Source: Candidatus Bilamarchaeum sp.
GTDB taxonomy: Archaea; Micrarchaeota; Micrarchaeia; Anstonellales; Bilamarchaeaceae
NCBI GenBank assembly: GCA_035455205.1
Contig: DATIFM010000015.1
Span: 1,986-65,985, forward strand
Length of the DNA: 64,000 nt
Direction: 5' to 3'
Shown here: in pieces, positions 5,081-60,998 of the stretch
Layout: every line of letters begins with the position of its first letter
Position numbering within the stretch: position 1 is the stretch's first letter
Program-made: the position numbers and the translations under genes
Notes under the pieces: model-generated
The model's input: the letters and a program-made list of their open reading frames with translations, nothing else
What the model was told of the DNA's origin: nothing
The model's database searches: none

Positions 5081-5743
5081 CTACCGAATTCTTCGCCCGC
5101 CCCGGGGCTCGGCCGGATGAAGGCGGGCGTAGGAAAGATACGAGTACGCGACGCTGGCGAGCGCCGCGGAGGCTACGGAGCCGAAAATGACGATGAATGA
5201 GTATTCCGGGATGAGCGCGGAAAGCAGGCACAGAGCGCCTGCGGCCATGAAGAGCTTCGAGCCGAGCCGGTGGGTTTTTGCCCACACCTCGGTGCTGCTC
5301 AGCGTCCAGGGCGTCCGTATCCCGATTGACCAGTTCTGCTTCGCCTTCGCGAGGAAGCTCCCGAGATAGAAAATCAGGCCGCCAAGGAGCACGGGCATCG
5401 TGAGGTTGAAGTTGATCCGGGTGCCGAGGTTCCAGAGCATCGCCTGGGCGTGCACGAGCAGGAGGAAGAGCAGCATTGCGATGCAGAACCTGAAATACGC
5501 CTTTTTGAAGGATTCGATGTTCGCGCGGAGCGGGTCGACCATGGGAACCGCGAGGAATACGAGCGCGAGCACCCCTGAAATCGCCGGGAGGAGGAAAGCC
5601 GCGTATTCCCTGGGCATGTAGCCGTCCGCTTCACCGGACGCGTTCCAGTGGGACACTGCGATTCCGGGGAGATGCGGGTAGGCATACGCCCCCACGGCGA
5701 ACGAAATGACGACCAAAAGGGCAATAGCTTTGAGCTCTATCAT
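5081..5743 (-). CDS. SdpI/DUF1648 family membrane protein
   Basis: 220 aa. It has a DUF1648-like start (PGIAVSHWNASGEADGYMPRE) and an SdpI-like NWSIGIRTPWTLSSTEVWAKTHR, with multiple TM helices. Confidence 0.75.
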   Translation of the reverse strand: MIELKAIALLVVISFAVGAYAYPHLPGIAVSHWNASGEADGYMPREYAAFLLPAISGVLALVFLAVPMVDPLRANIESFKKAYFRFCIAMLLFLLLVHAQAMLWNLGTRINFNLTMPVLLGGLIFYLGSFLAKAKQNWSIGIRTPWTLSSTEVWAKTHRLGSKLFMAAGALCLLSALIPEYSFIVIFGSVASAALASVAYSYLSYARLHPAEPRGGRRIR

Positions 5744-5780: not shown

Positions 5781-6287
5781 TCAGGGCTGAAAATGCCCCA
5801 GAACCGCCTTTACGTTGATATGGCAGTATCCGCCCGGGTTCTTCACTAGGTATTTCTGGTGGTATTCCTCGGCAGGCCAGAACGTCCCTGCAGGCTCTAT
5901 TGAAGTGGCTATCGGCTGGGAGTATTTCTTCTGCTCCATGGCCTTCGACGCTTCAGCGGCCTTCTTCTGCTCCTCCGAATGGAAGAATATCACCGGCCGG
6001 TACTGCGAGCCTATGTCGTTGCCCTGCCCGTCCGCCTGCGTCGGGTGGTGGGACATCCAGAACACCTCGAGCAGTTTCCCGTAAGTAGTCACGGTCGGGT
6101 CGTAAGTCATCTGGACGACTTCCACGTGGCCGGTCGTGTCGTCGCAGACCTGCTGGTAAGTCGGCTTCTTTGTCGAGCCGCCCATGTAGCCTACGGCCGT
6201 CTCCTTCACTCCCTTTATCTGCCTGAAAAGCTCCTCGGTGCCCCAGAAGCACCCTCCGCCGAATGTCGCCTTTTCCATGAGAACCAA
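5781..6287 (-). CDS. msrA: Peptide-methionine (S)-S-oxide reductase
   Basis: [15 protein letters not shown] active-site motif, [11 protein letters not shown] and YHQKYL. 168 aa. Confidence 0.95.
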
Positions 6288-6321: not shown

Positions 6322-7386
6322 CTACTTCGTTATGGTCTGCTTGGGCCTTGCTATCTTCAGCAGCGGGTCAGAGAGCCACGGCGAGAAGTCTATGCCGGCG
6401 CTCGTCATCCTGGAGGTGAGCTCCATCAGCGCCCCGCTCGGGGTGTCGGCCGCCATCACCGCGTCGAAGCTCCCCGCCCCGAGCTTCCCGTCCACTATCC
6501 TCCGCACTTCCGTAAAATTGCCCGTCAGGAAGGCCCGCCTGAGGACGGAGTCGTCTTCGACGAGCTTCTGCAGCATGAATGCGACGCGCAGCTGCTGCGG
6601 ATAGGATGAATACGTCGTGTCATGGCCCGCATTCCTCGTCAGCTGCTGCGCGTAAAGCTCGGCAAGGCCTTCGTGGAGCCAGACCGCGGAGGGGCGGGCG
6701 CCGTTGAACACGGGCGCTCCCGCAGCCCCCCTCCAGCGCATGTTGCTGGGGTCTCCTCCGCCAAGGTGCGCGGCGTAATGGAGCGTTTCGTGGAGTATGG
6801 TGCGCCTCCGGTCGGCCTCCACTGCCAGGTCGTCGGCGATTATGATGTGGTTCGTTCCGGGCGAGTAATACGCGTTTGCGCCTGCCCCTTCGGCCTGCTC
6901 GAGGGCATCGAAAAAGCTGCGCGGCGCGGTAGTGAATACGGGCGGAGTCTGCCTGAGCCTGCCGCTTATCACTGGCCCGAGGAAGCTCTCGCCGAGCAAT
7001 CCCACGGCCTCATGGCCCTCGGCGTTCGGGCCGGACGACTGGGCCGAATCCGGGGATACGGATGCCGGAAAAGCATTATTGGGAACTGCGCTCCTGAATT
7101 TCTGGTATTCCCGGTCCACGCGCCTATCCGCCTCTTCGCTCCCTCCCACGATGGTTGCGGGGCGCTCGTGGCCCCGCTCGCAGCTGGAGAATATGTCCTC
7201 CTCCGAGAAATGCTGGGCGGGCGCGCTGGACAGGAAAAGGGACACCTTCGAAGAATGGAGCGAGAGCTGCGAAAGCGACGCCAGGGCTATTTCCGCAGAC
7301 TGGCGCGCAACTGGCGCTTCCGGGCGGAAAGGGTTCGGGCCCGGCGGGGCGGCTTCGGTTTCGGCCTGCGCCTGCTTCAGCACCAT
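6322..7386 (-). CDS. Gluzincin-type (HExxH...WLHEGLAE) metallopeptidase-like protein; cargo gene of cassette copy 1
   Basis: HETLH is followed 29 aa later by [10 protein letters not shown], the MA-clan HExxH + (N/H)EGxA pattern. I chose the start at ATG 7384-7386 ([15 protein letters not shown]...). GGGAGG lies 8 nt upstream and there is a 1-nt TGATG overlap with the preceding ORF. Confidence 0.7.
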
Positions 7387-7667
7387 CAGGAAGGCCTCCC
7401 GGAATCCAGTTCCGCGCATATCTCCGCAAACCTGCGGAGGCGGCCTGCTGCCCCGTCCTTCGGACCCGTGAGCGATTCCCGGGCCCAGCCTGAAAGGAGC
7501 CGGTGGGACGATTCAAGGTAGGCCCGGACCGTCTCCTGTTCTGCCGTCCTTTCCTTCATGGCTGAAAGCTCGGCAAGCGCGGCCTCGATTTTTGAGAGCG
7601 AGTAGCTCACCTTGCCAAGGGTTTCCGCTTCGAGCGAAGACGCCCGCTCGGAAAATGAAGGCATCAT
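7386..7667 (-). CDS. Small helical protein (homolog of 57159..57461); adaptor/chaperone-like partner of the downstream gene
   Basis: 93 aa. SLSKIEAALAEL...YLESSHRLLSGW...RRFAEICAEL aligns with TLSALESALASW...YLKFRDALAAW...EMFVKLCREY of the ORF upstream of the giant gene. ATGA overlap with the VOC gene. Confidence 0.6.
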   Translation of the reverse strand: MMPSFSERASSLEAETLGKVSYSLSKIEAALAELSAMKERTAEQETVRAYLESSHRLLSGWARESLTGPKDGAAGRLRRFAEICAELDSGRPS

Positions 7668-8065
7668 TTCTTCACGGGCTCCCAGATGGCAAGGGCGTTG
7701 CCTTCGGAATCGGTGAAGAACGCGAGCCTGCCTACGCCGGGGACGTTGACCCTCTCGCCCATTTCCTTCCCGCCGTTCTTCTTTATCACTTCCATGGTCT
7801 TGTCGACGCTCTCGACCTGGACGTAATTGGTTATCGGCTGGCCCGGGTACATCCGCTTCATCATCCCGCCGGAGTTGAGCTGGCTCATCTCGTAGCCGTC
7901 CCCGGCCTTTTCCAGCTTCGCCTTTCCGGTCATGACGCCGTGATAGTCAGCGGGTATGCCGGGCATCTTGGACTTCTCGATGCTCCACCCGAAAACCTTC
8001 ATGTAGAACTTCTTCGCCCTTTCGAGGTCGTCAGCCGGAATCTCGAAATACGCTATGTTTCCCAT
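7664..8065 (-). CDS. VOC (glyoxalase/bleomycin-resistance fold) family protein
   Basis: The start MGNIAYFEIPADDLERAKKFYMKVFGW and the ending GRLAFFTDSEGNALAIWE are typical VOC beta-alpha-beta modules. Confidence 0.85.
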   Translation of the reverse strand: MGNIAYFEIPADDLERAKKFYMKVFGWSIEKSKMPGIPADYHGVMTGKAKLEKAGDGYEMSQLNSGGMMKRMYPGQPITNYVQVESVDKTMEVIKKNGGKEMGERVNVPGVGRLAFFTDSEGNALAIWEPVKK

Positions 8066-8210
8066 CCCATCACCGCAGGGACTGGGCAGGTAAAATTAAT
8101 ATTTTGTGCGCTTTGTTTCGGTAAAGTTGTGTTTATTTTTCTGTTAGAATGTACCCCGGGGGTTTTGGGAATCCGGAATAGTTTTTAATGCCGCGAGGTA
8201 TTAATTTTCC

Positions 8211-44486: not shown

Positions 44487-45404
44487 TCAGGAGCAGTTTG
44501 CCCCGTCGCAGGCCCACGGCTCGTAGCAGTAACCGTAATCGCCTTCCACGCAGCAGGACGCGCCGATGAAGCCGCAGTCCGTCCTCTCGATGAAGACTTC
44601 GGTGACGATGATGAATTCGTTGACCTGTGAAATCCCGATCCCTTCCTCGCCGAATGACGGCTCGAGGACGTTCGCGCGGTGGCCTGGGCTCGCAAGCCAG
44701 CCCTGAACGACTTTCGCCTCGAGCGCGCTTTCGCCCACCCAGTCGATTTTCGTCCAGTTCACACGAACCGCGGATTCTGCATATTTTTCCCGCGCGGCGA
44801 GGTCGGAAAGGACGCCCGCGGGGTCAGCGTATTCCTCGACTATCTGCGTTCCGCCTTCGCACGGCGCGTATGGCACGTCCGCGTATTTGAACGACCACTC
44901 GGGCGCCATGAAGATGTTCTCGCCCGACGCGTTGAAGTAGTATATGGAAGCGTTCATAAGGCGCCCCTCCTGATAGAGGCCTGTTTCGAAGCCCTCATGG
45001 TGGATGAAGATGTCCGGGCAGTATATCGAGGGGTCCGTGAGGTTCGCGTTCTCGCGTGCGAGGGCCTCGGAGTGCCCCCTCGCGACCTTCGCCACATCAT
45101 AGTTGTATTCGAGGGGCTCCAGGCCGTTTTTCAGGCGCTCGGCGTTTATCAATGCATGGATTCGCAGCTCCATCGCGGTCAGATTGTACTGCGGCCGGGG
45201 CGCGGGCTTTTCCGGCTGGGGGGAATTGATGCCGGGAATGGGCGGGATTTGAGGGGCCGGCCCTGAAGGCGGGGATGCGGGCTTTTGCGTTCCGGCGGAG
45301 GGGGCCGGGGCCTTTTGCGGGAACAATGCCGGGACTATGAAGAACACGGCAAGGAGCAGGAAAAACAACAGGACCAGAACAAGCATCCTCGCCATGAATA
45401 GCAA
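44487..45404 (-). CDS. Secreted CAP/SCP/PR1-like (YkwD-type) domain protein with Pro-rich linker and Cys-rich C-terminal tail
   Basis: An N-terminal TM/signal, a PAPS-rich linker, INAERLKNGLEPLEYNYDVAKVARGHSEALA and WLASPGHRANVL. Confidence 0.8.
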   Translation of the reverse strand: MLFMARMLVLVLLFFLLLAVFFIVPALFPQKAPAPSAGTQKPASPPSGPAPQIPPIPGINSPQPEKPAPRPQYNLTAMELRIHALINAERLKNGLEPLEYNYDVAKVARGHSEALARENANLTDPSIYCPDIFIHHEGFETGLYQEGRLMNASIYYFNASGENIFMAPEWSFKYADVPYAPCEGGTQIVEEYADPAGVLSDLAAREKYAESAVRVNWTKIDWVGESALEAKVVQGWLASPGHRANVLEPSFGEEGIGISQVNEFIIVTEVFIERTDCGFIGASCCVEGDYGYCYEPWACDGANCS

Positions 45405-46003: not shown

Positions 46004-46555
46004 ATGAAAAGGAAATCGGGCGGTGAACGCGGAACGGCGGGCGAATCACAGAAGCCTGCAGCTGGGTACCATCCGGAAACGGATACCATGCCTGCACAGG
46101 TCGGAAGGGAGGCAGTCGTCGCCATGCTCTCCAGGGTGGGAGCCTCGGCGAGCAAAGCCTCGAGCCCGGTGCCATCTGAGCTTGTCGAGCGGCTGGGCAT
46201 TCCGGAAAAACTGTTTTCCGAGGACAGGTGGACGTTCTCCTCCGACCCAGGAATTTCCGTGAAAGCAGTCGCGGAAGCCCTTTTCCGGGGCGCTCCATTG
46301 AATGGAAACCTTCCGGAGCTTCCAGGCTACGGGTTGTGCGTCTTCGGCCGCGGCTCGAGTTCGCTCCTGGTCCTGGTCGACAAGAGCAGAAAAATAGCGG
46401 TAATCGCTACGATAATGTCACATTCCGGGACGCCCGAATGGCAGTCTTTCCTGAAATCCATCGACGAAGGCCTGGAAAGGGCGAAGAAGCTGAGGGCAGA
46501 TGGCACGGCGTTCAAAGTAGTCGTCAACAATTCCTCGCTCACTACGCACATCTGA
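46004..46555 (+). CDS. Hypothetical protein, convergent with and abutting the giant gene's 3' end
   Basis: 183-aa ORF whose stop lies 3 nt from the giant ORF's stop. No family recognised, and the start is uncertain (Met-29 is possible). Confidence 0.5.
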   Translation: MKRKSGGERGTAGESQKPAAGYHPETDTMPAQVGREAVVAMLSRVGASASKASSPVPSELVERLGIPEKLFSEDRWTFSSDPGISVKAVAEALFRGAPLNGNLPELPGYGLCVFGRGSSSLLVLVDKSRKIAVIATIMSHSGTPEWQSFLKSIDEGLERAKKLRADGTAFKVVVNNSSLTTHI

Positions 46556-46558
46556 CTA

Positions 46559-49500
46559 TCATTGAGCCGGCGGCTTCGGGATGAATATCTGCGGCTTTTC
46601 CGGCCACATGCCGGGCACATCGGTTTCTGTTGTGCCGAAGCCGGTGCGGAATATGTCCAGGATTTCCTGGAGCGCTTTCCTTTTCTCGCCCGGCTCCATC
46701 ACAAGCTTCGCAAGAGCTTCGAGCTCATTTGCATCCGCTATCGTCCTGCCTTCCGTGTTCTGGTACACCCTGGCCCTCCCCGCCTCGACGATTATGCCGC
46801 CTACGGGTGCATCCCGTTTGAGGAGGCCGAAGAGCTGTCCGTCATGGTTCTGCAGCTCTTTGGACATTGCGCCCTGGACCTGTGGCGGGTCGGGGAGGGT
46901 GGCGCCCCGGTAAGAGCGTATGAACTCGCCTGCGAGCTGGGTCTTGTCAACTGCCATTCCGCGGGACTCCAGAGCAGTATGGACCATCGTCACGAATTCC
47001 GTGCTTTTCATGGCGAAGTCGCGGTTGAAGAACCCCATCTCGGCTCCGGGAGGCGCCGGGAGTCCGGGCTTCGGCTGGACCATTCCGGCCACCCAGTCGG
47101 TATCGAACGGCTGGAACGTAATTTTCGTCCCATCCGGGGTTTCGACCAGGAAAACGGCGGTGTTCCTGACGGCCCGATCGGCCACGAGAGCGCGCCGTGA
47201 CATCTCATGGTAGGCCGACCAGGCCTGGAACAGCTGGGCCCGCCCTTCAGGAGTCGCAGCCATGTCGAAGAACTGCTTCACTGCCGGATAGCGCGGGTCA
47301 TTCGGGTTCGCCAAAATGCCAGATACCCTGGCCGGGTCCCTCAAAATCTCGCTGTCGAGCATGGCAACGCTCTTTACCGGATATTCGCCGGACTGCCCGT
47401 CGGGAAGCCGCAGCTTGAGGGACTTGCCCACGTATCCGTGCACGTCCTCGCTGAGGCTAAACGTCCCTTCGACGGGCCTTCCGTTTGCATCCGACAGGCC
47501 GGTCTGATATTTGAACGTATGGAGGCCGGCAGAGTAATCGAGCAGCCCCTGCGCGCCGCAAAGCCTGGACCCGAAGGCGGTCGGGCCGAGGTCCTCGTTT
47601 TTGAGGAATATCGTCCTGCCGTCGCTGAGCTTCATCATGTAGGCGCCGGCGTTGCCGCCAAGATGCGCAATGTCGGCTACATACGCGTTCTCGTATCCGG
47701 CGAGGGAACGCAGGTTGCCTTCGAGGTTGCCGCTCAGCACGAATTCGGCCAGCTGCTGGTGCTCCTGGAAGAATGCCCTCCTCTCTTTGGAAAGCCTGAG
47801 CCGGGCATCGGTCGCCATGCCGGGCGGCGCTCCGAGCATTTCGTCCATGACTCCGAATACGCCGTCCCTCTGGTACGCAGCTTTTAAAGCGTCCCGGAAT
47901 TCTCCCGGCTTTACCCCTCTTGCCTGGGCCATGGACGCTATTGTCGCGTGCGGTGGCTCGGCATCCAGTATAGCCCTGGCCCGGCCATCAAGGGTGAGAA
48001 GGGGGATGTCGTTGCTCATTCCCAGGGAACCCATGACCGCCCGCGTTTCTTCGATGCCGCCGCGGAGGTACGCCTCCATGAGCTGGTTCCGGATTTGCTC
48101 GGGGGGAACCCCCCGGGCGTCGGCGGCGGTCTTTATTATCTGCTCAAGAGTAGGGTTCCTCTGACCTTTGGCCAGGGCGACGAATGCAGAATCGAGCGAC
48201 TTGCCGTCTGCATCCCTCCTTGCCAGCCGGTCCAATTCTGCCTGCTCCCGTGCGGGGGCGGCGCTTTCCCACTCCTTTGCGAGCTTCTGGACCTCCGGGC
48301 TGCCGGCTTCGTATTTGAGCATTTCCTCGACCATGCGCCTGACCGCAGGCTCGAGCTTGTCCATCTCACCGGTGAACTCCTGGCCCCTGAGCCCTCGGAC
48401 TTTTTCTGAAATCGCAACAAGCTCCTTTGCGCTCGGCCCTTCCTGTGCAGGCGGGACGCCCGGAGCCTCGCGCCGTGTGATATCTTCGTCAGGCGAAGGC
48501 TGCTTGACTTCTCCCTTCCGGGGCTGCTCGTGCGGCGCTGCAGGGCCTTCCTTCTGGACCATGGCTGGCTTCTGCGGCTCATTCGCAGGAGGCTGCTTCG
48601 GCGTCCCCTCGGGCGGTTTATCTGCCATCGCGACAGGCTTCACCGGCCCTTCCTCGCCCTGTGATTTCTTCGGCTGGTGGAGCTCGTCCAAAACGGGCCG
48701 GGGTGCCTCGACATCAGGGGATGCGCTCGCCGCCTTGGCCCGGGGCTCGGTGGATTCGGGCATCGCCCGGATTACCATGCCCCGTGCAGTTTCAACGAGC
48801 GCTTTTCCGCCCTTGGTATCCGACACCCACTCTTCGAAGCCCTTGCCCTGCGCTTTCATCCGGAACATCTTCTGGCTGTCTTTAGTGGGCATCTGCCCTG
48901 GCTCGCCGGTGATGTGCCTGAGCGCTGCCTGCACGTCCTTCGGAAGCGCGTCGAACCGCGCCGCAACAGAGTCGTCTTTTTTCAGGCCGCTCTCGTGGAG
49001 ATAAAGGTCCCTCGCAAACAAGGCGAGGGATTTGGCATCGGAAAGGTTCATCTGCTTTGCCAGCTCGAAGCCGACATCCTTCTTCATCGGCTCGGGGATT
49101 TGGGGAGTCTCGCCCTTGATGATTGAGGCCGCGATGTCCGTCGGGGATTTCGCTTCCTGGGGCTGGACCGGCGCGGCATTCACCGGAGGCTCGACTTTCT
49201 GGGCAGGCGCTTCCTTCCCCTTGTATTTCACGAAGTCGAGCGCAGCCTGCTCGTGCGGCTGGAGCGGAGTGCCGGCCTTCTGCTTGTCGCGGGCGATTTT
49301 CGCGAGCCGCTCTATCTGGTCGGTCGGCTCACCCGGGCGGTACTGTTTCGTTATTTCCGGCTTCTGGAAATATGAGTCGAGCGTTTTTGACGCGCTGTCA
49401 AGTATCTCGCCCTTCCTGCGGCCCGCCTCTGTCCGGAAAGCCGATGCCCTCCGGTAGAGTTCGACTGCGTCCCCCTTCATGCTCGCGGGGAGCGCGTCGG

Positions 49501-52500
49501 CCCTGGCGTCCATCTCGATTGCGCGGCTCATGAGCGACTCAGGGCTCGCGCCTCCGATGCTCTCGAACCGGGCCTCCTTGGCGAATTTTGCGCGCTCATT
49601 CAGGGCTTCGGTTTCGAGCGCGATGTCGCGCTTCGCGTAGTTCTCGAAGCTCGCCCGCCCCCCTCCAATCCTGAAGTTGTCGTATCTCGTATTGAGGGAC
49701 GAGAAGCTCTCGAAATCGAGCGACGGCTCGACTTTCCGGGCGGTCTCGTAGTTGTTAAGGAGCTCCACCTGCCGCTCGTATCCTATCCCGCGCTTGCTGG
49801 CATAGCTGTTGAATGCCTTCTGCTCCGGCTTGGGAAGCTGGGCCAGGCCCTCGGTAACGGCCTTCTTGTAAATGCCCTCCTGCCACGCTGCGCGGTATTG
49901 CGCCCGGCTTTCGGGCGGAGTGCCGAATATGAGCATCTCTCCTATCTGGAGGGCCCTGCTCCGGTAGACGGGCAGTCCGGTCCTGCTAACCTGCGCGCCA
50001 CGCAGCGCATGGAGGCCGGGCTGGACGCCGCTCTGGATTCCCGTGAGTATTCCTTCGGCGACCGCATACCATCCGGAAACCTGGCCGGATGATGCGGCCT
50101 GGCTAAGCTGGTAGATGGAAACGCCGCCCTGGACTGCGCCCCCGGCTATCATGACGCGGCCGAGCCACGTGGAAGTCAGCTCGAGGGCGGTCGGCGCGAG
50201 CGCGCTCTCGGCCTCGAGGCCGAGCTGGGCCATGCGCGCGGCATTCTGCGCCTGGGCAAGCTCGCCCACGACCGGCGCTGCGGCCGCGCCTATCGCCATC
50301 CCGACCTGGAAAATCATGAACGCCTGCTCGCCAGCTGACATCCCGCTGAAGTCACCGCCGCACGCCTCATAGTATTCCGCGGCGCCGATGAAGCCCTCGG
50401 TCGCGGCGATGGCGCCCGCGAGGTATCCCGTGGCCCCGCCGGTTACAGGCGAGAGCGCGAAGAGCACGCCGTAGCCGGCCATCTTGAGCACGCTCTTTCC
50501 GAGGTTCGCGGCGTCCTGCCAGTCCTGCTTGGACCGCGTCCATTTGCCGGTCTCGTAGTCCGGGTCCCAGAGCTTGCCGTTTATCTCCTGGAACGGCATG
50601 CCCTGCTTGTATACCTGCTCGGACTCGGCGATGACCTCGCTCAGGTACCGCCCTCCGGGGTTCTTGACGATGATTTCCGCGGAGCGGTGGAAGTCCCGCG
50701 AGCGCGTGCCGACGCGCGCAAGGTAATGCTGCTCGTCGGACTCCCACACCCCCACGCCCGCCTTCATCACTATGTCGTTCTCGAGGTTCGTGAACTGGGC
50801 GTAGGCTTCGGATATCCTCCTGAATTCCCCGGGCGTCATCTGGAACTTCTCGAGCGTTCCGTCGTCCTTCTTCCTGAAGCCGCTCAGCCAGAGCTGCATC
50901 TCGGTCTTCATCTGGGCATAGTCCTCGGCATTCCACTTCTTCTGGAGCTCGTTGTCGAGGTCGGACTTGGCGAAGATGATGTTGTAGGCCTCAAGGTTAA
51001 TCTCGTAATCGTTCTTCAGCATGGTCCTGACGCGGTCCGAATCGTTCATCCACCCGTATCCGTCGCGCGTGAGGCTCTTTGCCATCGCAATCGACTCGCC
51101 TGAAAGCCGGTAGAGCTTCAGCTTGTCGTTCTCGTCCTGCGTTATCGCCGCCCGGTTCTGGAGCACTTTCGCGGTCTGGAGGCGCTTCGACACGTACGGC
51201 TCGATTGAGGTGTCCCATTCCATGTTGTTCTTCCGCGCGACGAGGCCGGATGAGAGGGCGAGGAGCTGGACTACCTGGTCGTCGCTGAACTCCTCGGTCC
51301 CCCCGGCCCGCTGGACCGCGGCGAAAAGGAGCTCGGGGCGGTTCGTGAGGACATGGCTCCAGAGCGCCCTGACCTTCTGCTCGTACGAAGGGTCGTTCAC
51401 AGCGCCCTTGGCGTCCTCGAGCATCTTCTTTATCTCCTTCACTTCCGGGCTGTTCGTGTCGGGTATTTTCGAGAGGAGGGAAATCATGCCGTCCTCGTTG
51501 AGCGTGAGCTTGCCCGCCGTGCGCTCTATCGAGTCCCTGCTCTTTAGCGCGAGGCGGGAGGCCGCCCCGTTCTGCTTGGCCCGGCCGAGGAGCCCGCCCT
51601 TCAGTTCATCCACTGCAGGCTCGAGCTGGCGCTTTGCCTTGCCTGCCGCTATCCGCTCGTCGAGGTTCCTTTTCTTGTCGGCCCCGCTCGCCGAGTCGTC
51701 GAGCAGTCCCGGCTCCTCCGGATACCATTCCTTGGTCTTGTACGCGCGCCGCGTGTACTCGTACTCGGCATAGTCGAAGGCCACGCGCTCGTTGTCCGCC
51801 TCCTGCATGCCGACTTTCGTGTAAGAGACGTCCTGCGCGTCCTGGAGCGCGAACTCCGCGCTGGCGATGTCGCCCTTTGCCGCAAGGCCCCTCGCGTCCA
51901 CCACTTTCTGCACGAGCGCATCGCGGTCGAAATAGATGAGGTCTCCGTCCACTATCTTGTCGGCCATGCTCTTGCCGCCAGGAGGGGTGTAGAAGTTGGA
52001 CTGAAGGGCGTCGAGCATCATCTCGCGGCCGAAGTCGCCTCCCTTTCCCTTGTCCATCTTGTCGAGCTTGTCGTAAAAGTCCTGCCGCTTCGCTTCGGGG
52101 AGGTGGGCTATCAGCTGCCGCAGGAGCAGCTCGCTCGGGTATGGCCAGCCGCCTTTGTTCACGGGGAACCCGCCGAGCCCGCGCTCGTCGCTTTTCGGGG
52201 CCGCGAGCCGGAGCTGGCGGCTCAGGCGGAATTCGTCTATGTTCAGCGAGGCGATGAGCCCGCCGCTTTCCATGTCGAATTTGGCCTGCCGGCTCAAGGC
52301 GCCGGCCGCCGCGAAGTTCTCGCCCCAGTAGAGGCCCACGACCTGCTGGAATTTCTTCTCGTTCGCGAGCGGGTCGTACGGTGTCTTGGCCTCCCCGTCC
52401 TCGTAATAGACCATCTTGATGCCGTCAGGGTGGTTCACATCCGTCGTCCCGCTCGCGAGGCTGAAGTAGTATTTCTGGAGCTTGTCGAATTTCTCCGGGT

Positions 52501-55500
52501 CCTCGCTTTCGGCTATCTTCTTGGCCTCGTCCTTCACGTTCTGCGCGGTCTGCGGGTCCAGGTCCGCTATCTTGCCTATCAGCTCCAGGGACTTGTTGAG
52601 GTTCCCTTTCTGCAGGGTCTCCTTGGCCGCGGCTATCCCTGCGTCCCTCGTCCTCATTATGTCCTGCTGCAGTTTCACGGCCTGCTTCCCGGCCTTACCC
52701 GCGCCCGCGGCCTGCTCGAACAATGCAGACTCGCGCTCAGGCGTGAGCGCGCCTTCCTTCCGGTTGCCGAGCCGGTCTGCGTCGTAGCCCAGCCCTATGG
52801 CGAGGTCGGTCTTTATCGCGATGTTGAGCTGGAACCTGCCGCGCTCGCGGTGTATCGTGTTCACTTTCCTGACGCTCTCGTCCATGGTGCCGAGGTCGGA
52901 GGCAAGCGAGCCGGCCGCGAGGCTGAGCTTGTCCGAGTTCTGCCTCGCCTGCGCCGCCTGCGCATAGAGAGCGCCGGCCTGCTCCGAGAGCTTCCCCGCC
53001 TCATCAGCCTTTCCGGCGTCCGCCGCCGCCTTCGCCTGCGCTGCAAGGGAATCGGCCTGGTCCGAGAGCTTTTCGGCCTTCTCGAGCTCTGATGCGGCCT
53101 TCGCGAGCATCTCCCTGCCTTTTGCTATCGCGTCAGTCGCGAAGCCGCGGTCCACTTCCGCCGCCTTAGAGTCATAATAATCGGCGAACGCATTCCTCCC
53201 GGCCTTGCGGTTCTGGTCCGCAAGCGCCTTGAAGCGCTTGCTTTCGCCCTCCCACTGCGCATCTATTCCTTTTCCGAGGAGGTTGTCGAAATCCGTGGCG
53301 TGGGACGCTATGAAGGCGATTTTCGTGAAGGACGCGGCATCCTCCTGCAGTTTTGCAAATGAATCGCCCATCGAATCCTTCAGCGGCTTCTTGGAGAGGA
53401 CTGCCACGGCGGCAGGCGCGCTCACATCCTCAGGCTTCTTTTCGGCAATCCTTTTCGCGTCCTTCTTGTAGTCGCCGAGGTATTTCTCGATTGAAGCCAT
53501 CGCGTCCGCGCGCTGTTTCTTCGAGTCCTTGTCCAGCGCGGACTCCCGCGATGAGGCCAGGGATGAATATGCGAGGGCGAGCTGGCGGAGCTCCTGCGCG
53601 CCGGTCATATCGCCGTTAGCGGCCGCAACCTCGGCAAGGTCGAAGTACGCCCTCGCGTTCGCGAGCTGGCCGCGGTCGCCGATTTTCTTCTCGACTTCGG
53701 CGCGCGCGGAAATATCGCCGAGTATGAACATGCCGGCGCCGGGCGGGATTTTTCCCTCGTCGCACGCCTTCGCTGTTTCTGCGATGCGCGAAAGCTCGCC
53801 GGGGTTCGCAAGCCCGGCCTGCGCGGCCTGCAGGAAGAGCATGCCCTTGTCGGAGTCGCCCGCGATGAACGCCTTCGCGCCCTTTTCGAAAAGCCCGGCA
53901 AGCTCGGGCTTCGGATTTTTTCCTGCCTTGAGCATAAGGTCCCGGAGCGCCATGAGCCCCTTGATGCGCTCGCGCTCGGCGACGATCGCGGCGGACTTTG
54001 CCGCCCTTGCGATAGCCAGCTCCATCGCGTCCGCGTCGGAGATTCCGGGGTTCTCCGCCTTTGCCTCCGCTGCAAGCAGGTCTATCTGCTTTTTGAACTC
54101 CGGGTCCTTCAGCATGTCGCGGACCTGGCCGAGATACTGCTCCGCCTTCTTTTCGTCCGAGAGGTCCTCGCCCCTTGCAATCATGCCCCGGACGCGGTCG
54201 AGCTCCTTTGAAATGTCATTGAGCGGGCCTGCCATCGCGCTTCCCTTCGGAAGCTCGGATGCCATCTTCGCCGCGATTACTGACTGGTCGTTTATCTGGA
54301 TGAAAGTCTGCACGTCCGGCATCGCAGAATCCGGGTCCTTGGCCACCCGCGCCGAGAGCGACTCCAAATCCGCGCGCTGGGATTCGTCGGGCGCCAAGAG
54401 ATATTTTTCGGCAAGGAACTTCTGCGTGCCTGAAATCGAGGGGTCGAGCCCGGCCAGCGTAGCCGAGAGCGCGCGGTTGTATATCGCGACGGCGCCCTTC
54501 CTGCGCTCCTCCGGGAGGCGCGCCCCGGCCGAGCCGCCGAGGAAATCGTTCATGCTTTTGACTACGTCGAGGGCGGCCCTCGCGCGCGAAAGGGATTCCA
54601 AATCGTCGCCGGGCTTTATCTGCGAGAGTATTTCCTGCGTGCTCTCATCCGGGGCCTTGGCCTTTGCGAGCTTCTTTTCGAGCGACTGCTTTATCACCCC
54701 GATGAGCTTTGCGCAGGCCTCCTTTGCCTTGGCAGGGTCCTTCATCGCCGAAACCTGCTGCATGATGTCCCTGCGGTATGAGCCGGCCTCGAAATCGAAT
54801 GCCGCATTCGCCCGCAGCTCGCTTGCCGCGAACATCAGGGTGCGGTACTGCTCGGTTTCGCCCCCCTCCAGCTTGTCGAGCGCGATTCCGTAGAGCTCGG
54901 TGAGGTTTTTTTTCAATTCAAAATTGTCCGTTTTCTGGAACTCCTCGGACATGCGCCGCATCTCGCGCGAGCGGGCGATAAGCGCGCCAACATCGCCTGC
55001 CTTGTCGAAATCCTTGAGCGCGGCGCCTATGTCGCCAAGGAGCTTCTCTGCCCTGCCCTGGAGTTCCTTGGGGAGCGATGGCAGGGATTCTAGGAGAGCC
55101 GACTGCTCGTACGTCAGGTCTTCGCGTGCCTGCTCCTTCATCTTCACGAGCGCCTCGGAATACTGCTTCAGGGCCTCCAGCGCCTGCTCTTCCGGCGCGG
55201 AGACGAGCTCGTTCGCGAACCCGAGCGCCTTGAGCGCGCCGTTCAAATTGTCTGCCTTGAGGGCGGTGAGCGCCTTGCCCGTGACAGAGAGAACGCCGCT
55301 CCGGAGCGTCTCGTTCTCCTTCGGGAGGACCTTGCTCCTGATGAAGCCGAAAATGCCGAGGGCCTGGCTCGCCTTTCCGAGCAGGCCCAGGTCCGCATTC
55401 CCATCCCGGAGCGGCTTGAAGAGCGAGGCGAACGTGTCGGCGAGCTCCGGGCTTACTTTGCGGAGGATTCCCTCTGCCGCCTCCGCATCCTTCAGGAAGC

Positions 55501-57169
55501 GCGCGGAGAGCCGGGACCTCACCTCGTCGAGGCCGATCTTCCCTTTCGAAAGGCCGTCGCTAAGCTCCGAAAGCAGCTTCCGGTATTCCGGGTCTGCGGC
55601 CATCAGGTGTTCGCCTGCGATGAATTTCAGGAGGCTGGCAGCCTCGGACTTCGGGTCCTTCATCGCCGAATCCACTGCGTTCGCGATGAGTCCGGCGGAT
55701 TCCTCGCGCGCCTGCTTCTCCTTGTCTGTCTTTGCCGGCAGTTTCAGCAATGCGGCGAGCGAGCCTTTCAGGTACTGGAGGGTTTCCCCTGCGCCCCTGA
55801 GGTATTCCGCGGTAATGCCTTCCCCGCTCTTCAGCCTGTCCTGTATGGACTTGAGAAGCTTTCCAGCGGCCTCTCGGAGCGGCTTGCTTCCTGTCTCTTC
55901 GATTCCCTTCAGCATGCCCTGGAGCGACGACTCCAGGCCCTGCAGGGCCTTCATCTTGTCGGATTTGGCTTTTGCAATCGCGTCGAGCGCCTTCCCGAGG
56001 TCTTTCTGGAACGAATTGATTGCTTCGGTGAGCTTTTTCCTGTCCAGGAGGCCGGCCGAGACCATCTTGGAGGTGGAAACCAGCTTGTTCAGGAGCGTCT
56101 TGTCCTTCAATAAGAGCTCCTTGTTCCGGAGGAATGTGACGCCGAGCTGGAGGAGCTGCTGGCCCCTTTCGCGGAGAGCGGCGGTCTTGGATTCGAGCAG
56201 TTTTCCCGCCCCCTTCAACGCGGCGACGAGCTCGGGGGGCGCCCCGGCCTCGGTGAGCGCAAGCTCGAGCGCGGATGCCACGAGCTTCTCCGCCTTCTTC
56301 TCCAGCTCGGCCATCTCCTTTTCCTTCTCGTCCTTGTCCTTCTTTGAATCCGTTATTTTCGCGAGCGCGCCCGCGAGGTCCCCGAGGAGCTTGTCCATCT
56401 GGTCCTTCATCTTCGTGCCCACGATTTCCGAGGTCATGACGCTCTGGAGCATCGCGGAGACGCTCTGGAGGGCCGCGACGTCGCTCACCCTCGCGCTCGC
56501 AATAGTGAAATTCTGCTGGAGGGACTGGAATGCCGAGGTCGCCTCGGACGCGCTCATCTGCACGGATGGGTCGGTGAGCCGCCCTACGGTCGCGAGCAGG
56601 CTTCTCCTTGCCTGCTCGTTGCCGGGGGCGTTGTAAACCTGGGGATTGTCCAATAAGTTCTTCGCGCCGAACACCGCTGAGGCCACCCTTTCCGTCCCCC
56701 CTTCGGTGCCTATCATGCCGAACCCGCGCTGGAGGTTGTCGCTCAGCGCCTTTGCCTCGGCCGAGCCGTCCTGCTGGGCCTTGTATTGCGCCATCACGCC
56801 GAAAACAAGCACGATTGCTCCGCCCTGCGCCTGCTGGAGCAGGCTCGCGTCGCCGGTCTGGAGCGCCCTTGTTGCCATGTCCGCTATCCGGTCGACCTGC
56901 TGGCTGTAATCGTATTCGCCCATCCGCGCGCCCTTGGCCTTGCTCGCCCAGTCCAGTATCGAGCGTGCCTGCCCGACCTGCGTCTCGTTAAGGCCGGAGT
57001 CGAGGCGGTCGGACTGGCGCAATGCCTGCCCTACCCGGGAATCCGTATCCCTCTCGACCTGCCGCAGGTCCTGCTGCTGGACAGGCGGGGGCCCGTGCCT
57101 CGGCGGGACGTGCATCTGGGGCGGGTTCGCCTCGACCTGGTCCGGGGCCTGCTTCTGCTTATCGGCCAT
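46559..57169 (-). CDS. Giant protein (3,536 aa): helical N-terminal ~2,200 aa, 3-4 Gly/Ala-rich TM segments, Pro-rich linkers, C-terminal PI3K/PI4K-like kinase-fold candidate
   Basis: An uninterrupted ORF with G/C-rich third positions throughout. GGGAGGG lies 6 nt before the ATG. The TM cluster is encoded at about 50030-50510, and the kinase-like motifs (GGNAGAY, IFLKNEDL, ADRAVRN, QPFDTD) at about 47090-47700. Confidence 0.9.
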   Translation of the reverse strand: MADKQKQAPDQVEANPPQMHVPPRHGPPPVQQQDLRQVERDTDSRVGQALRQSDRLDSGLNETQVGQARSILDWASKAKGARMGEYDYSQQVDRIADMATRALQTGDASLLQQAQGGAIVLVFGVMAQYKAQQDGSAEAKALSDNLQRGFGMIGTEGGTERVASAVFGAKNLLDNPQVYNAPGNEQARRSLLATVGRLTDPSVQMSASEATSAFQSLQQNFTIASARVSDVAALQSVSAMLQSVMTSEIVGTKMKDQMDKLLGDLAGALAKITDSKKDKDEKEKEMAELEKKAEKLVASALELALTEAGAPPELVAALKGAGKLLESKTAALRERGQQLLQLGVTFLRNKELLLKDKTLLNKLVSTSKMVSAGLLDRKKLTEAINSFQKDLGKALDAIAKAKSDKMKALQGLESSLQGMLKGIEETGSKPLREAAGKLLKSIQDRLKSGEGITAEYLRGAGETLQYLKGSLAALLKLPAKTDKEKQAREESAGLIANAVDSAMKDPKSEAASLLKFIAGEHLMAADPEYRKLLSELSDGLSKGKIGLDEVRSRLSARFLKDAEAAEGILRKVSPELADTFASLFKPLRDGNADLGLLGKASQALGIFGFIRSKVLPKENETLRSGVLSVTGKALTALKADNLNGALKALGFANELVSAPEEQALEALKQYSEALVKMKEQAREDLTYEQSALLESLPSLPKELQGRAEKLLGDIGAALKDFDKAGDVGALIARSREMRRMSEEFQKTDNFELKKNLTELYGIALDKLEGGETEQYRTLMFAASELRANAAFDFEAGSYRRDIMQQVSAMKDPAKAKEACAKLIGVIKQSLEKKLAKAKAPDESTQEILSQIKPGDDLESLSRARAALDVVKSMNDFLGGSAGARLPEERRKGAVAIYNRALSATLAGLDPSISGTQKFLAEKYLLAPDESQRADLESLSARVAKDPDSAMPDVQTFIQINDQSVIAAKMASELPKGSAMAGPLNDISKELDRVRGMIARGEDLSDEKKAEQYLGQVRDMLKDPEFKKQIDLLAAEAKAENPGISDADAMELAIARAAKSAAIVAERERIKGLMALRDLMLKAGKNPKPELAGLFEKGAKAFIAGDSDKGMLFLQAAQAGLANPGELSRIAETAKACDEGKIPPGAGMFILGDISARAEVEKKIGDRGQLANARAYFDLAEVAAANGDMTGAQELRQLALAYSSLASSRESALDKDSKKQRADAMASIEKYLGDYKKDAKRIAEKKPEDVSAPAAVAVLSKKPLKDSMGDSFAKLQEDAASFTKIAFIASHATDFDNLLGKGIDAQWEGESKRFKALADQNRKAGRNAFADYYDSKAAEVDRGFATDAIAKGREMLAKAASELEKAEKLSDQADSLAAQAKAAADAGKADEAGKLSEQAGALYAQAAQARQNSDKLSLAAGSLASDLGTMDESVRKVNTIHRERGRFQLNIAIKTDLAIGLGYDADRLGNRKEGALTPERESALFEQAAGAGKAGKQAVKLQQDIMRTRDAGIAAAKETLQKGNLNKSLELIGKIADLDPQTAQNVKDEAKKIAESEDPEKFDKLQKYYFSLASGTTDVNHPDGIKMVYYEDGEAKTPYDPLANEKKFQQVVGLYWGENFAAAGALSRQAKFDMESGGLIASLNIDEFRLSRQLRLAAPKSDERGLGGFPVNKGGWPYPSELLLRQLIAHLPEAKRQDFYDKLDKMDKGKGGDFGREMMLDALQSNFYTPPGGKSMADKIVDGDLIYFDRDALVQKVVDARGLAAKGDIASAEFALQDAQDVSYTKVGMQEADNERVAFDYAEYEYTRRAYKTKEWYPEEPGLLDDSASGADKKRNLDERIAAGKAKRQLEPAVDELKGGLLGRAKQNGAASRLALKSRDSIERTAGKLTLNEDGMISLLSKIPDTNSPEVKEIKKMLEDAKGAVNDPSYEQKVRALWSHVLTNRPELLFAAVQRAGGTEEFSDDQVVQLLALSSGLVARKNNMEWDTSIEPYVSKRLQTAKVLQNRAAITQDENDKLKLYRLSGESIAMAKSLTRDGYGWMNDSDRVRTMLKNDYEINLEAYNIIFAKSDLDNELQKKWNAEDYAQMKTEMQLWLSGFRKKDDGTLEKFQMTPGEFRRISEAYAQFTNLENDIVMKAGVGVWESDEQHYLARVGTRSRDFHRSAEIIVKNPGGRYLSEVIAESEQVYKQGMPFQEINGKLWDPDYETGKWTRSKQDWQDAANLGKSVLKMAGYGVLFALSPVTGGATGYLAGAIAATEGFIGAAEYYEACGGDFSGMSAGEQAFMIFQVGMAIGAAAAPVVGELAQAQNAARMAQLGLEAESALAPTALELTSTWLGRVMIAGGAVQGGVSIYQLSQAASSGQVSGWYAVAEGILTGIQSGVQPGLHALRGAQVSRTGLPVYRSRALQIGEMLIFGTPPESRAQYRAAWQEGIYKKAVTEGLAQLPKPEQKAFNSYASKRGIGYERQVELLNNYETARKVEPSLDFESFSSLNTRYDNFRIGGGRASFENYAKRDIALETEALNERAKFAKEARFESIGGASPESLMSRAIEMDARADALPASMKGDAVELYRRASAFRTEAGRRKGEILDSASKTLDSYFQKPEITKQYRPGEPTDQIERLAKIARDKQKAGTPLQPHEQAALDFVKYKGKEAPAQKVEPPVNAAPVQPQEAKSPTDIAASIIKGETPQIPEPMKKDVGFELAKQMNLSDAKSLALFARDLYLHESGLKKDDSVAARFDALPKDVQAALRHITGEPGQMPTKDSQKMFRMKAQGKGFEEWVSDTKGGKALVETARGMVIRAMPESTEPRAKAASASPDVEAPRPVLDELHQPKKSQGEEGPVKPVAMADKPPEGTPKQPPANEPQKPAMVQKEGPAAPHEQPRKGEVKQPSPDEDITRREAPGVPPAQEGPSAKELVAISEKVRGLRGQEFTGEMDKLEPAVRRMVEEMLKYEAGSPEVQKLAKEWESAAPAREQAELDRLARRDADGKSLDSAFVALAKGQRNPTLEQIIKTAADARGVPPEQIRNQLMEAYLRGGIEETRAVMGSLGMSNDIPLLTLDGRARAILDAEPPHATIASMAQARGVKPGEFRDALKAAYQRDGVFGVMDEMLGAPPGMATDARLRLSKERRAFFQEHQQLAEFVLSGNLEGNLRSLAGYENAYVADIAHLGGNAGAYMMKLSDGRTIFLKNEDLGPTAFGSRLCGAQGLLDYSAGLHTFKYQTGLSDANGRPVEGTFSLSEDVHGYVGKSLKLRLPDGQSGEYPVKSVAMLDSEILRDPARVSGILANPNDPRYPAVKQFFDMAATPEGRAQLFQAWSAYHEMSRRALVADRAVRNTAVFLVETPDGTKITFQPFDTDWVAGMVQPKPGLPAPPGAEMGFFNRDFAMKSTEFVTMVHTALESRGMAVDKTQLAGEFIRSYRGATLPDPPQVQGAMSKELQNHDGQLFGLLKRDAPVGGIIVEAGRARVYQNTEGRTIADANELEALAKLVMEPGEKRKALQEILDIFRTGFGTTETDVPGMWPEKPQIFIPKPPAQ

Positions 57170-57461
57170 CGTAACCCTCCCGGTACTCGCGGCAGAGCTT
57201 CACGAACATTTCGAGGCGCGTTTTCCGCATCTCGAACGGGTCGCCGTTGTCCCTCGAGCGGAGCATCAGCGTGAGCCACGCGGCGAGCGCGTCCCTGAAT
57301 TTCAAATAGCGGGCGAACTTCTCCTTCAGCTCCTCGGGCTTGTCCTTCGACAGTTCCCATGAAGCGAGGGCGCTTTCCAGAGCCGAGAGTGTGCTGCTCG
57401 CTATGCGGATTGTCTCCCGCTCCTGCTCGGTTATGCTGGTTTCGCCTATCTTTTCAGCCAC
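57159..57461 (-). CDS. Small helical protein overlapping the giant gene's start (homolog of 7386..7667)
   Basis: 100 aa with a GTG start about 25 nt downstream of a TTAATAAAA box (leaderless-type). It overlaps the giant ORF by 11 nt and aligns with the 93-aa ORF at 7386..7667. Confidence 0.65.
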   Translation of the reverse strand: MAEKIGETSITEQERETIRIASSTLSALESALASWELSKDKPEELKEKFARYLKFRDALAAWLTLMLRSRDNGDPFEMRKTRLEMFVKLCREYREGYDGR

Positions 57462-57540
57462 GGAAAGGATTCTTCAGCAGGTTTTATTAATCGTCAAGGA
57501 GCCACGCTGGAATTATTAAGCTGAATAAAGGATTCCGGTC

Positions 57541-60318: not shown

Positions 60319-60998
60319 TTTTTTCGCCTGAAAATCAGGTAAATCGCCAAAAGGGCCAGCAGGACGACTCCGGCATAGAGAAGGAGGTTGTCCTCCTGCG
60401 CCGGAGCCTTCGGGGCCTGCGATAGGTATGGAGTCGGGATAGGCTTCTGCTCCGGGGGCACGGGGGCCGTGGAGTTGGGGCCCAGGCCGCACTTGTCCGG
60501 GCAGGTGAGCGGCGTTTCGCCGATGCGCTCGTCGCATCCGGGGGCGCTCGAGCATTCCACCGCGACTTCAAGGCTGTTCGAGAATGCCTTCCCGCCCGGG
60601 AAGAGAACCTCGGTGGGGCCGAACGAGAGAATCCCAACTGTTTTCGGCTTCACACGGTAAACGAGGCTTTGCGATTCCCCGGGCCCGAGTGAAAGCTCCC
60701 AGGAAAGGCGCGGAGGCTGGGCGGCAAGCGAATCCCCGATGACGTCCGTGTAGTTCGGCAGCGGGTCCACGGGCTCGACATTGCCCAGGTATTCGTTGAC
60801 CGTGACTCTGACCTCCGAGCTGCCATTGTTCCTCAGGGTAATCGTAACGGGAAATTCTTCCGTGAGATTTACCGAGAGGGGCGCGTATTTCATGACGTCC
60901 AGATTCCCGGCGAATTTCTGCTCCGGATAGCTCACGCTCGAGTCCTGCGCGTGCGCAAGGCAAAGGAGAATGAAAACTAAGGCGAGCTGCTTCAGCAT
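60315..60998 (-). CDS. Secreted protein with a beta-sandwich (CARDB/DUF11-like?) domain, Pro-rich stalk and C-terminal TM anchor
   Basis: The start is at MLKQLALVFILLCLAHA (signal). It contains VTITLRNNGSSEVRVTVNEYLG and the C-terminal LLLYAGVVLLALLAIYLIFRRKN. Confidence 0.7.
   Translation of the reverse strand: MLKQLALVFILLCLAHAQDSSVSYPEQKFAGNLDVMKYAPLSVNLTEEFPVTITLRNNGSSEVRVTVNEYLGNVEPVDPLPNYTDVIGDSLAAQPPRLSWELSLGPGESQSLVYRVKPKTVGILSFGPTEVLFPGGKAFSNSLEVAVECSSAPGCDERIGETPLTCPDKCGLGPNSTAPVPPEQKPIPTPYLSQAPKAPAQEDNLLLYAGVVLLALLAIYLIFRRKN

Follow-up and report, generated by a model that had tools for sequence, protein, structure and literature searches.

In Firmicutes, the LXG toxins of the type VII secretion system b (T7SSb) are preceded by genes for the small helical helpers Lap1 and Lap2, which are WXG100-like, cognate and co-inherited with their cargo. 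A small dedicated partner that is encoded beside its substrate and expressed in a coupled manner is also known from CesA and EspA, from FliS and flagellin, and from the class I–III chaperones of type III secretion systems (T3SS). To our knowledge, Archaea have no T3SS, and we know of no archaeal T7SS. Micrarchaeota are tiny symbiotic archaea. Here, we describe a two-gene module found in a stretch of 64,000 nucleotides (the window) from Candidatus Bilamarchaeum sp., a member of the Micrarchaeota (GenBank assembly GCA_035455205.1, contig DATIFM010000015.1, positions 1,986 to 65,985 of the forward strand). Gene 1 of this module encodes a small three-helix protein, and gene 2, which starts a few nucleotides from the stop of gene 1, encodes either a zincin-like or a giant protein. 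The module occurs in two copies in the window, has so far been seen only in Micrarchaeota, and a given subfamily of the small protein is always paired with the same cargo family. We regard it as almost certain that the module is real and conserved.

Both operon-like gene sets, copy 1 and copy 2, lie on the minus strand of the window and consist of the following genes.

7664..8065, minus strand: VOC/glyoxalase-fold gene, 133 amino acids, heading the copy-1 operon (Pfam Glyoxalase, E = 1.6e-10; Ble-like_N, E = 6.4e-9)
7386..7667, minus strand: small open reading frame (ORF) A, 93 amino acids, three-helix bundle, cluster 5 (family hidden Markov model (HMM), E = 3.6e-18)
6322..7386, minus strand: cargo 1, zincin-like protein, 354 amino acids (ORF call)
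57159..57461, minus strand: small ORF B, 100 amino acids, GTG start, cluster 14, giant-associated (family HMM, E = 2.4e-32)
46559..57169, minus strand: cargo 2, giant protein, 3,536 amino acids, ATG at 57169..57167 (ORF call)

A preliminary description of this DNA had placed the two small ORFs and the 354- and 3,536-amino-acid proteins at the same positions. Its core observation holds and is much broader than first seen, and two of its details, an N-terminal tag common to the cargos and a kinase call for the giant, should be dropped on present evidence. The alignment of the small ORFs against shuffled sequences, their co-occurrence with cargos elsewhere and the comparison with an explanation by the overlap and its Shine-Dalgarno (SD) sequence all spoke in favour of the observation.

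The two small proteins are homologous. BLASTP aligned them with 29% identity over 84 amino acids (E = 2e-4), their Smith–Waterman score of 67 was reached by none of 5000 shuffled sequences (29.4 ± 5.4; z = 7), and one family HMM matched both at the E-values listed above. An exhaustive profile search yielded 208 representatives of 50%-identity clusters at E ≤ 1e-3, with 144 at E ≤ 1e-10; a word-indexed search returned 8 relatives only. Among 150 family members listed, all were standalone proteins of 77–151 amino acids and none was a domain in a larger protein, with typical module members having about 95–105 amino acids. When 146 members were compared with Pfam, no recurrent family was matched, and PADLOC and NCBIfam gave no match either. 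Judged by these searches, the small proteins of about 100 amino acids are a previously unannotated family of Micrarchaeota. No match pointing to a mobile-element or viral origin was obtained among IMG/VR contigs or GenBank phages, no defence system was matched in PADLOC, and two JGI metagenome scans were without a match.

AlphaFold2 (AF2) with the family alignment predicted small ORF A as an antiparallel three-helix bundle with a predicted local distance difference test (pLDDT) score of 95.5. The helices span residues 5–36, 42–67 and 70–89 (32, 26 and 20 residues), and the fold neighbours are coiled-coil bundles. Across the family, E.ET at the N-terminus, RL..F..IC in helix 3 and two Trp are among the conserved features; a Glu, both Trp and a Leu are near-invariant, and the Cys of helix 3 is invariant across clusters 5 and 14. 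Cluster 14, which includes small ORF B, comprises 57 representatives and cluster 8 comprises 26.

A scan of GTDB species genomes gave 22 zincin loci, all in Micrarchaeota or archaeal metagenome-assembled genomes (MAGs), and the association with the small family was assessed by searching all loci with the HMMs of both families. A small-family gene was located directly upstream and on the same strand in 25 of the 35 zincin genes with assessable upstream DNA. The earlier proposal of one conserved small partner in front of two kinds of cargo that are unrelated to each other was supported, and the pairing recurs in many related genomes. Counted to the nearest start codon, the spacing was 0 nucleotides in 12 pairs, −1 in five and between −20 and +10 in seven of the other eight. 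In the 12 pairs, the cargo ATG follows immediately and in frame after the stop codon of the small ORF. Every zincin-linked small ORF belongs to cluster 5. Tandem arrays of two to three such pairs were common (loci L014, L017, L019, L021, L022, L025, L027 and L029), and pairwise identity among the small proteins rose with that among the neighbouring zincins (r = 0.52), a value reached by 0 of 2000 full permutations and by 36 of 2000 within-locus partner swaps. This co-divergence indicates that small protein and zincin duplicate and diverge as units.

At L023 (positions 1231–2727, P0027, MAG RIFCSPLOWO2_12_FULL_37_11), one stop-to-stop ORF joins a truncated small ORF in frame to a complete zincin. 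It keeps helices 1 and 2 of the small protein without helix 3 and is either an artefact of a deletion or a fusion that arose naturally and links the small protein with the N-terminus of the cargo. The final zincin paralogue of three tandem arrays (L014:12840-14235, L025:6546-7841 and L034:5476-6669) has no small ORF of its own, and at L014 it is followed by an 82-amino-acid ORF similar to the N-terminal extension of family member P0017. The arrangement of copy 1, with the order VOC, small ORF, zincin and with msrA downstream, was also found in L010/L011 and on L008 (a 701-bp contig); the VOC protein of the window is 75% identical to that of L010.

Adjacency might in principle be left over from duplication or reflect a merely convenient operon, with the small ORF serving only as a leader for translational coupling. 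In favour of this view, some zincin paralogues do without a small ORF, and the proposed similarity of the cargo N-termini is not significant. However, an absent functional link is hardly credible in view of the protein-level conservation over 208 clusters, in which a Glu, two Trp and a Leu hardly vary, the confident predicted fold, the adjacency kept over deep divergence with two cargo families, and the co-divergence of the partners.

The giant cargo shows a corresponding association. At L001, L002, L004–L007 and L009, a giant follows a small ORF of cluster 14, and small ORF B is 52–60% identical to those in front of the orthologous giants at these loci. The window giant itself is 60% identical over 2,853 amino acids to its orthologue in L001, 41% to that in L002 and 46% to that in L005; the partial giants were aligned over their available length only, and the overall range was 41–60%. 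The L009 giant aligned with 34% identity over the first 220 residues only. In L037, a cluster-8 small ORF precedes a giant of 7,279 amino acids with long segments 25% identical to the window giant, and across genomes, the giants range from 2,864 to 7,279 amino acids. Members of clusters 6 and 9 precede ORFs of >571 and >373 amino acids, which run off short contigs. Each recovered giant N-terminus follows a small ORF, with the loci having been retrieved via the small-ORF search. The giant-linked members that were checked belong to clusters 14 and 8, the majority of the family. At L001 (10280-10360; MAG016, GCA_040758235.1), homology to the giant begins right behind the TGA of the small ORF, in the same frame and with no ATG (…GTG ATG TGA CTG GCG GAA AAG…). 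Translation may start at a non-canonical CTG here, or the stop codon may be read through to yield a fusion of small protein and giant; an assembly error would be a third explanation. A giant N-terminal profile searched against a collection of 5.8 billion proteins gave no match, not even the giant of the window, although the window's small ORFs and zincin are present there. Giants are therefore possibly missing or poorly indexed in this collection, and their apparent rarity should not be over-read.

The giant of the window is rich in Ala, Leu, Lys and Glu and has neither an HExxH motif nor a Pfam domain above threshold. A zincin domain hidden in it was ruled out (no HExxH; zincin HMM E > 1). 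The following features were located in the giant.

49997..50482, minus strand: Gly/Ala-rich hydrophobic stretch, amino acids ~2230–2391, candidate membrane-interacting region (Kyte–Doolittle and visual inspection)
46559..48645, minus strand: C-terminal ~700 amino acids, after amino acid ~2841, past the part alignable with L001 (BLAST)
47630..47647, minus strand: GAYMMK motif in the tail (sequence)
47162..47179, minus strand: DRAVRN motif in the tail (sequence)
47096..47107, minus strand: FDTD motif in the tail (sequence)

The only Kyte–Doolittle peak above 1.5 lies at amino acids 2283–2305. BLAST alignments of the window giant end at amino acid 2841 with L001 and at 2598 with L002, the L002 giant stops at 2,864 amino acids without the window's tail, and the tails are not significantly alike (best E 0.32). 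The tails of the window and L001 share only the short motifs G.GAYM.K, D(R/H)..RN and (F/I)DTD. Isolated C-termini gave no Pfam match at E ≤ 10 and no relevant phmmer match in PDB. A kinase-like C-terminus, as claimed earlier, was thus given up, since neither Pfam nor PDB sequence searches support it. Of the variable enzymatic C-termini proposed for the two cargos, only the zincin stands, at the level of its motif, whereas the kinase call has no database support. The non-alignable ends of otherwise orthologous giants resemble exchangeable C-terminal modules. As small ORF B (53–60% identical to its orthologues) goes with the conserved giant bodies (41–60%) and the tails are not alignable, these data fit an adaptor rather than an immunity protein.

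The prevalence of giant-linked members also bears on a structural role, in which the bundle would be a stoichiometric cap, nucleator or anchor of a fibrous or surface assembly built by the giant, and the zincin-linked subfamily a later co-option. The predominance of clusters 14 and 8, the Ala/Leu/Lys/Glu-rich composition of the giant and a coupled translation that suggests fixed stoichiometry are compatible with such a co-subunit. A 1:1 structural role is less natural with a soluble enzyme of 354 amino acids, though, and Pfam scans detected no repeats or known assembly domains, so that we consider this explanation improbable.

For the zincin-like cargo, the preliminary description had recognised a gluzincin signature from two motifs.

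6778..6792, minus strand: HETLH motif of cargo 1, amino acids 199–203 (sequence)
6658..6681, minus strand: WLHEGLAE motif of cargo 1, amino acids 236–243 (sequence)

Both motifs are present and invariant in the family, but the gap between them is 32 amino acids and not 29 as first given. Invariant residues are H199, E200, H203, H238, E239, G240 and E243, with the HExxH residues found in 22 of 22 sequences, and HExxHY..LGGG and WLHEGxxEL are both conserved throughout. For the cargo-1 protein, 24 relatives were detected, and all those with a source name were from Micrarchaeota. The AF2 model (pLDDT 84.8) shows the first ~60 residues as a low-confidence helix detached from the domain, and this flexible N-terminal region of the model is a possible docking site for the small protein. 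Most zincins start with M.G..LERRVE.AE, and the N-terminus is shortened in the lineage of the window.

Database matches of the zincin were weak throughout. Seven of 22 members matched Pfam SprT-like, at E 0.015 at best, whilst a match to M78 was seen in 1 of 22 (E 0.2; 11.9 bits with a cut-off of 22). The best PDB profile match was the motif region of an M61 aminopeptidase (7xyo, E 0.031), whose SEGFTEY aligns weakly with WLHEGxxE. Fold matches in PDB and BFVD were rich in zincins, none of them significant (PDB foldseek, best E 0.43), and the best BFVD match was an IrrE N-terminal-like protein (E 0.014). Because of these weak matches, we label the protein as a zincin with a gluzincin-type motif and assign no curated family. 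It has an invariant HExxH in common with the gluzincins M1/M61 (HExxH…xEGxxE), and its invariant downstream (W)LHEGxxE helix is a candidate counterpart of their xEGxxE motif, which bears the Glu that is the third zinc ligand. However, it never reaches a curated cut-off for gluzincins or for the minimal zincins (M78 IrrE/ImmA, SprT/Wss1; best Pfam E 0.015), and it differs from known zincins by an N-terminal helical region of its own. On these sequence grounds, cargo 1 represents a family of Micrarchaeota-specific zincin-like proteins of 350–450 amino acids with a predicted peptidase motif. The family is restricted to Micrarchaeota MAGs save for one contig, L013, which is 3.0 Mb long with 45% G+C and encodes a homologue (P0013, 8001-9188) with 53% identity. 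No small ORF lies upstream of it, and its neighbours are lectin, VWA and Ser/Thr-kinase/TPR genes. As this contig far exceeds a Micrarchaeota genome, horizontal transfer into another organism may have occurred.

The weak M78 (IrrE) and SprT-like matches, the IrrE N-terminal-like neighbour in BFVD and the order of the genes would fit a pair of the ImmR/ImmA or Xre–COG2856 type, in which the small protein is a regulator or a substrate cleaved by the zincin. We consider such a pair very improbable, since the M78 match stays far under the Pfam cut-off, the partner is a long-helix coiled-coil bundle rather than a helix-turn-helix (HTH) protein, no DNA-binding family was matched, and the pairing with protease-less giants would be left unexplained.

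A further explanation assumes an inhibitor, antitoxin or trans-prodomain, by which the small protein would neutralise the downstream protein within the producer cell until its release, for example by blocking the active site of the zincin like the three-helix prodomain of matrix metalloproteinases. A small gene that lies upstream and overlaps the next one is the usual order for type II antitoxins, the bundle carries the Cys in helix 3 that clusters 5 and 14 have in common, and the catalytic motif of the zincin is intact and could need restraint. Nevertheless, members of the same family, with the Cys, are also partners of giants without an HExxH or zincin domain, the small protein does not change along with the variable ends of the giants, 10 zincin paralogues occur without it, and no DNA-binding or known antitoxin domain was found in Pfam, PADLOC or NCBIfam. 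Inhibition is therefore unlikely. A cysteine-switch prodomain in particular was rejected, as giant-linked members retain the Cys too, and its position is inside helix 3 and not in an extended switch segment.

The following signals were located at the gene junctions and upstream of the operons.

8090..8105, minus strand: TATA-like AT-rich box AAAATATTAATTTTAC, ~25–40 nucleotides 5' of the VOC start (read from sequence)
57482..57490, minus strand: TATA-like box TTAATAAAA, 21–29 nucleotides 5' of the GTG of small ORF B (read from sequence)
7395..7400, minus strand: SD-like GGGAGG in the end of small ORF A, 8–13 nucleotides 5' of the zincin ATG (sequence)
7384..7388, minus strand: TGATG stop/start overlap of small ORF A and the zincin (sequence)
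57175..57181, minus strand: SD-like GGGAGGG in the end of small ORF B, 5–11 nucleotides 5' of the giant ATG (sequence)

The box AAAATATTAATTTTAC is a putative promoter for the operon of VOC gene, small ORF A and zincin, and TTAATAAAA one for that of small ORF B and the giant, whose transcript is possibly leaderless. The gene 3' of the zincin, msrA, has its own TATA-like box. As noted earlier, both small ORFs overlap the start of the next gene, by 1 nucleotide (TGATG) in copy 1 and by 11 nucleotides in copy 2, and the VOC stop overlaps the start of small ORF A via ATGA. The nucleotide likeness of the two junctions, which had also been claimed, was only weakly above chance (score 24 vs 14.1 ± 4.2; 15 of 3000 random window segments equalled it) and largely consists of the SD-like GGGAGG and ATGG, which most pairs elsewhere carry as well. 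G-rich SD-like motifs precede the cargo ATG in most pairs of other genomes. The tight spacing (0, −1 and −4 nucleotides) together with an SD-like G-tract inside gene 1 indicates translational coupling.

Since a small, coupled gene lies directly upstream of large proteins, its product is most likely their dedicated partner, and it probably binds its cargo. That it would act as a chaperone or adaptor, rather than as an inhibitor or structural subunit, can be put forward only tentatively. This assignment draws on the coupled expression, the upstream position of the small gene, the one putative natural fusion at a cargo N-terminus, the tracking of the giant bodies rather than their tails and the lack of an evident signal peptide. 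The chaperone or adaptor logic of the preliminary description thus remains the best reading, but by inference only, and our overall interpretation, in which the small protein serves large cargos with no evident signal peptide as their cognate chaperone or adaptor, is a possible one that stays somewhat short of probable. The small protein would be made together with the cargo as its cognate binding partner, bind a conserved, probably N-terminal, helical part of it and keep large signal-less cargos soluble or inactive. It may then pass them to an assembly or export route in symbiont–host interaction, and would track the conserved cargo body rather than the variable C-terminal end.

Several results weigh against a chaperone or adaptor. 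The three-helix bundle has no specific structural relative, as a PDB fold search returned generic bundles only (designed three-helix coiled coils, syntaxin Habc and coiled-coil (CC) domains of NLR proteins; best E 0.57). The median pI of the small family is 8.7, whereas classical secretion chaperones are acidic. No export machinery turned up in the domain scans, which covered ~17 ORFs of the window, mostly close to the two cassettes. In addition, hhalign demonstrated no shared N-terminal docking domain between the cargo classes, and 10 zincin paralogues are without a small partner, which indicates that the partner is not obligatory.

A more specific version, a targeting adaptor of a so far undescribed effector-delivery route of DPANN archaea, is rather unlikely. 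Here, the adaptor would recognise signal-less zincins and giants with exchangeable ends and hand them to a cell–cell contact apparatus, and the cargo would be transferred to the host archaeon, as an archaeal counterpart of chaperone- or adaptor-dependent effector secretion in bacteria.

An N-terminal tag common to the cargos had been suggested, because the downstream proteins seemed to begin alike. Over the first ~40 residues, 281 of 5000 shuffles equalled the similarity score. An hhalign comparison of the cargo N-termini gave E 0.0019 at a probability of 14% with thin profiles, and E 0.035 at 1.4% with a better zincin profile of 31 sequences. Beyond the first dozen residues, zincin and window giant share no detectable similarity, and most zincins start differently. 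A common tag or domain was therefore rejected as unproven by shuffles and profile–profile comparison and as not family-wide; homology of the small ORF to the cargo N-terminus was rejected as well (hhalign E 0.04–0.47). No signal peptide was evident by inspection in either cargo N-terminus, and both are polar and Pro-rich. Within a genome, the first ~15 residues of giant and zincins are more alike than to orthologues elsewhere, which is anecdotal. In the window (57120..57169 and 7336..7386 compared), the giant starts with MADKQKQAPDQVEA and the segment KQKQAPDQVEA was noted. In MAG016 (L001, L020 and L024), the giant starts with AEKHREPDE and the zincins with MVEPKHRERRFDEP and MAERQKREGG, the resembling segments being EKHREPDE, PKHRERRFDEP and ERQKREGG. 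A post-hoc motif, [KR][QH][KRQ] within the first 9 residues, occurred in 6 of 377 gene calls, four of them cargos, and was thus rare among other genes (2 of about 370), in a test that is circular. A basic, Gln-containing N-terminal motif of the cargos is thus a hint.

The remainder of the window (59.6% G+C; no match in a tRNA and Rfam search) contains an SdpI/DUF1648 membrane protein (5081..5743), MsrA (5781..6287), a CAP-domain protein (44487..45404) and a protein of 799 amino acids with PKD, fn3 and purple-acid-phosphatase-N domains, probably a surface protein (60992..63391). The SdpI/DUF1648, CAP-domain and 799-amino-acid genes did not recur beside cassettes in other genomes. VOC/glyoxalase-fold genes with a Ble-like N-terminus adjoin cassettes of either cargo type or are no more than a few kb away from them (window 7664..8065; L001:6136-6519; L002:11721-12107; L009:374-1246; L010:3894-4370), and the window VOC is 45–48% identical to those beside the giant loci L001 and L002. 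This recurrence may go back to a common ancestry of the loci or to some link in function. No conserved third gene was found at the giant loci, barring one weak pair: an ORF of 183 amino acids (46004..46555, plus strand), convergent on the 3' end of the giant and without a Pfam match, resembles a 186-amino-acid gene near the L037 giant (7424-7984; 26% over 135 amino acids, E 2.4e-4). These two may represent an additional accessory gene that accompanies giants.

Little is known of the means by which DPANN archaea adhere to their hosts and exploit them, and giant proteins are prime suspects yet hard to study. A small, confidently folded and co-encoded partner offers a handle for co-expression, pull-downs and localisation, and the HMM of the small family could serve as a genomic marker by which Micrarchaeota are screened for candidate interaction proteins. 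The module joins two newly defined families, that of the small partner with its 208 clusters and that of the Micrarchaeota-specific zincin. If the adaptor interpretation is true, this would be the first archaeal chaperone/adaptor–cargo system of such type, as far as literature searches show.

Literature searches found no description of the pair of small protein and cargo, and neither family is in Pfam, NCBIfam or PADLOC, in agreement with the earlier statement that no described archaeal system of this kind was known. SPEARE protein of Nanohaloarchaeota (PMC6642349, PMC10266531) is similar in that a very large protein is encoded in a reduced symbiont genome and suspected to act in host interaction; the searches found no dedicated small upstream partner of SPEARE-type giants described.

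With polymorphic toxins (Zhang et al. 2012, PMC3482391), of which archaeal examples are mentioned in PMC6393860, the module shares giants with a long conserved body and non-alignable C-terminal regions as well as tandem arrays of zincin paralogues. However, the membership in this class proposed earlier was not upheld. The cargos have no recognised trafficking or pre-toxin domain (Pfam, NCBIfam, PADLOC), the DUF4157 signature is absent, eCIS_core was matched by 1 of 22 zincin members at E 0.4, and the giant tails match no known toxin family in Pfam and PDB searches. Neither an immunity gene conserved in downstream position nor an orphan toxin cassette was seen at the compared loci, where the 3' neighbours are the convergent 183-amino-acid ORF (window giant), an opposite-strand VOC gene (L002 giant) and msrA (zincin). 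In the present module, conservation of an accessory gene is instead seen on the upstream side, and different cargos have homologous copies of it.

Type II toxin–antitoxin loci also have an upstream small gene overlapping the downstream one (here by 1 and 11 nucleotides, with spacings of mostly 0, −1 and −4 nucleotides), but the small protein has no ribbon-helix-helix (RHH), HTH, AbrB or PHD domain, one cargo has 3,536 amino acids, and no known small toxin family is involved. ImmA/IrrE (M78, COG2856) differs as well, because the zincin stays below the PF06114 cut-off and its partner is no HTH repressor. None of the polymorphic-toxin, T7SS, toxin–antitoxin or ImmA/IrrE systems is thus fully matched in its defining features.

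Among the export chaperone pairs (CesA–EspA, FliS–flagellin and T3SS chaperones), the small protein is likewise adjacent to its cargo and coupled, and could complete a bundle with a cargo helix. The family is not acidic (median pI 8.7), a CesA profile matched 1 of 146 small members at chance level (E 0.0066), and the cargos here are enzymes and giants, not filament subunits. The module differs from LXG/Lap of T7SSb in being archaeal, in having a three-helix bundle instead of the WXG hairpin (PF06013) and in having no downstream immunity gene; no T7SS was seen among the ~17 ORFs scanned, and WXG100, LXG, DUF3130 and DUF3958 profiles matched neither the 146 small members nor the cargos. Common to both are an all-helical protein of ~100 amino acids encoded immediately 5' of a large signal-less protein, a conserved N-terminal or central cargo body with differing C-terminal ends, and co-inheritance of helper and cargo. 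By analogy, the logic of the module therefore appears nearest to these bacterial helper–cargo pairs, T7SSb LXG with Lap and the T3SS and flagellar chaperones, and in part to polymorphic toxins.

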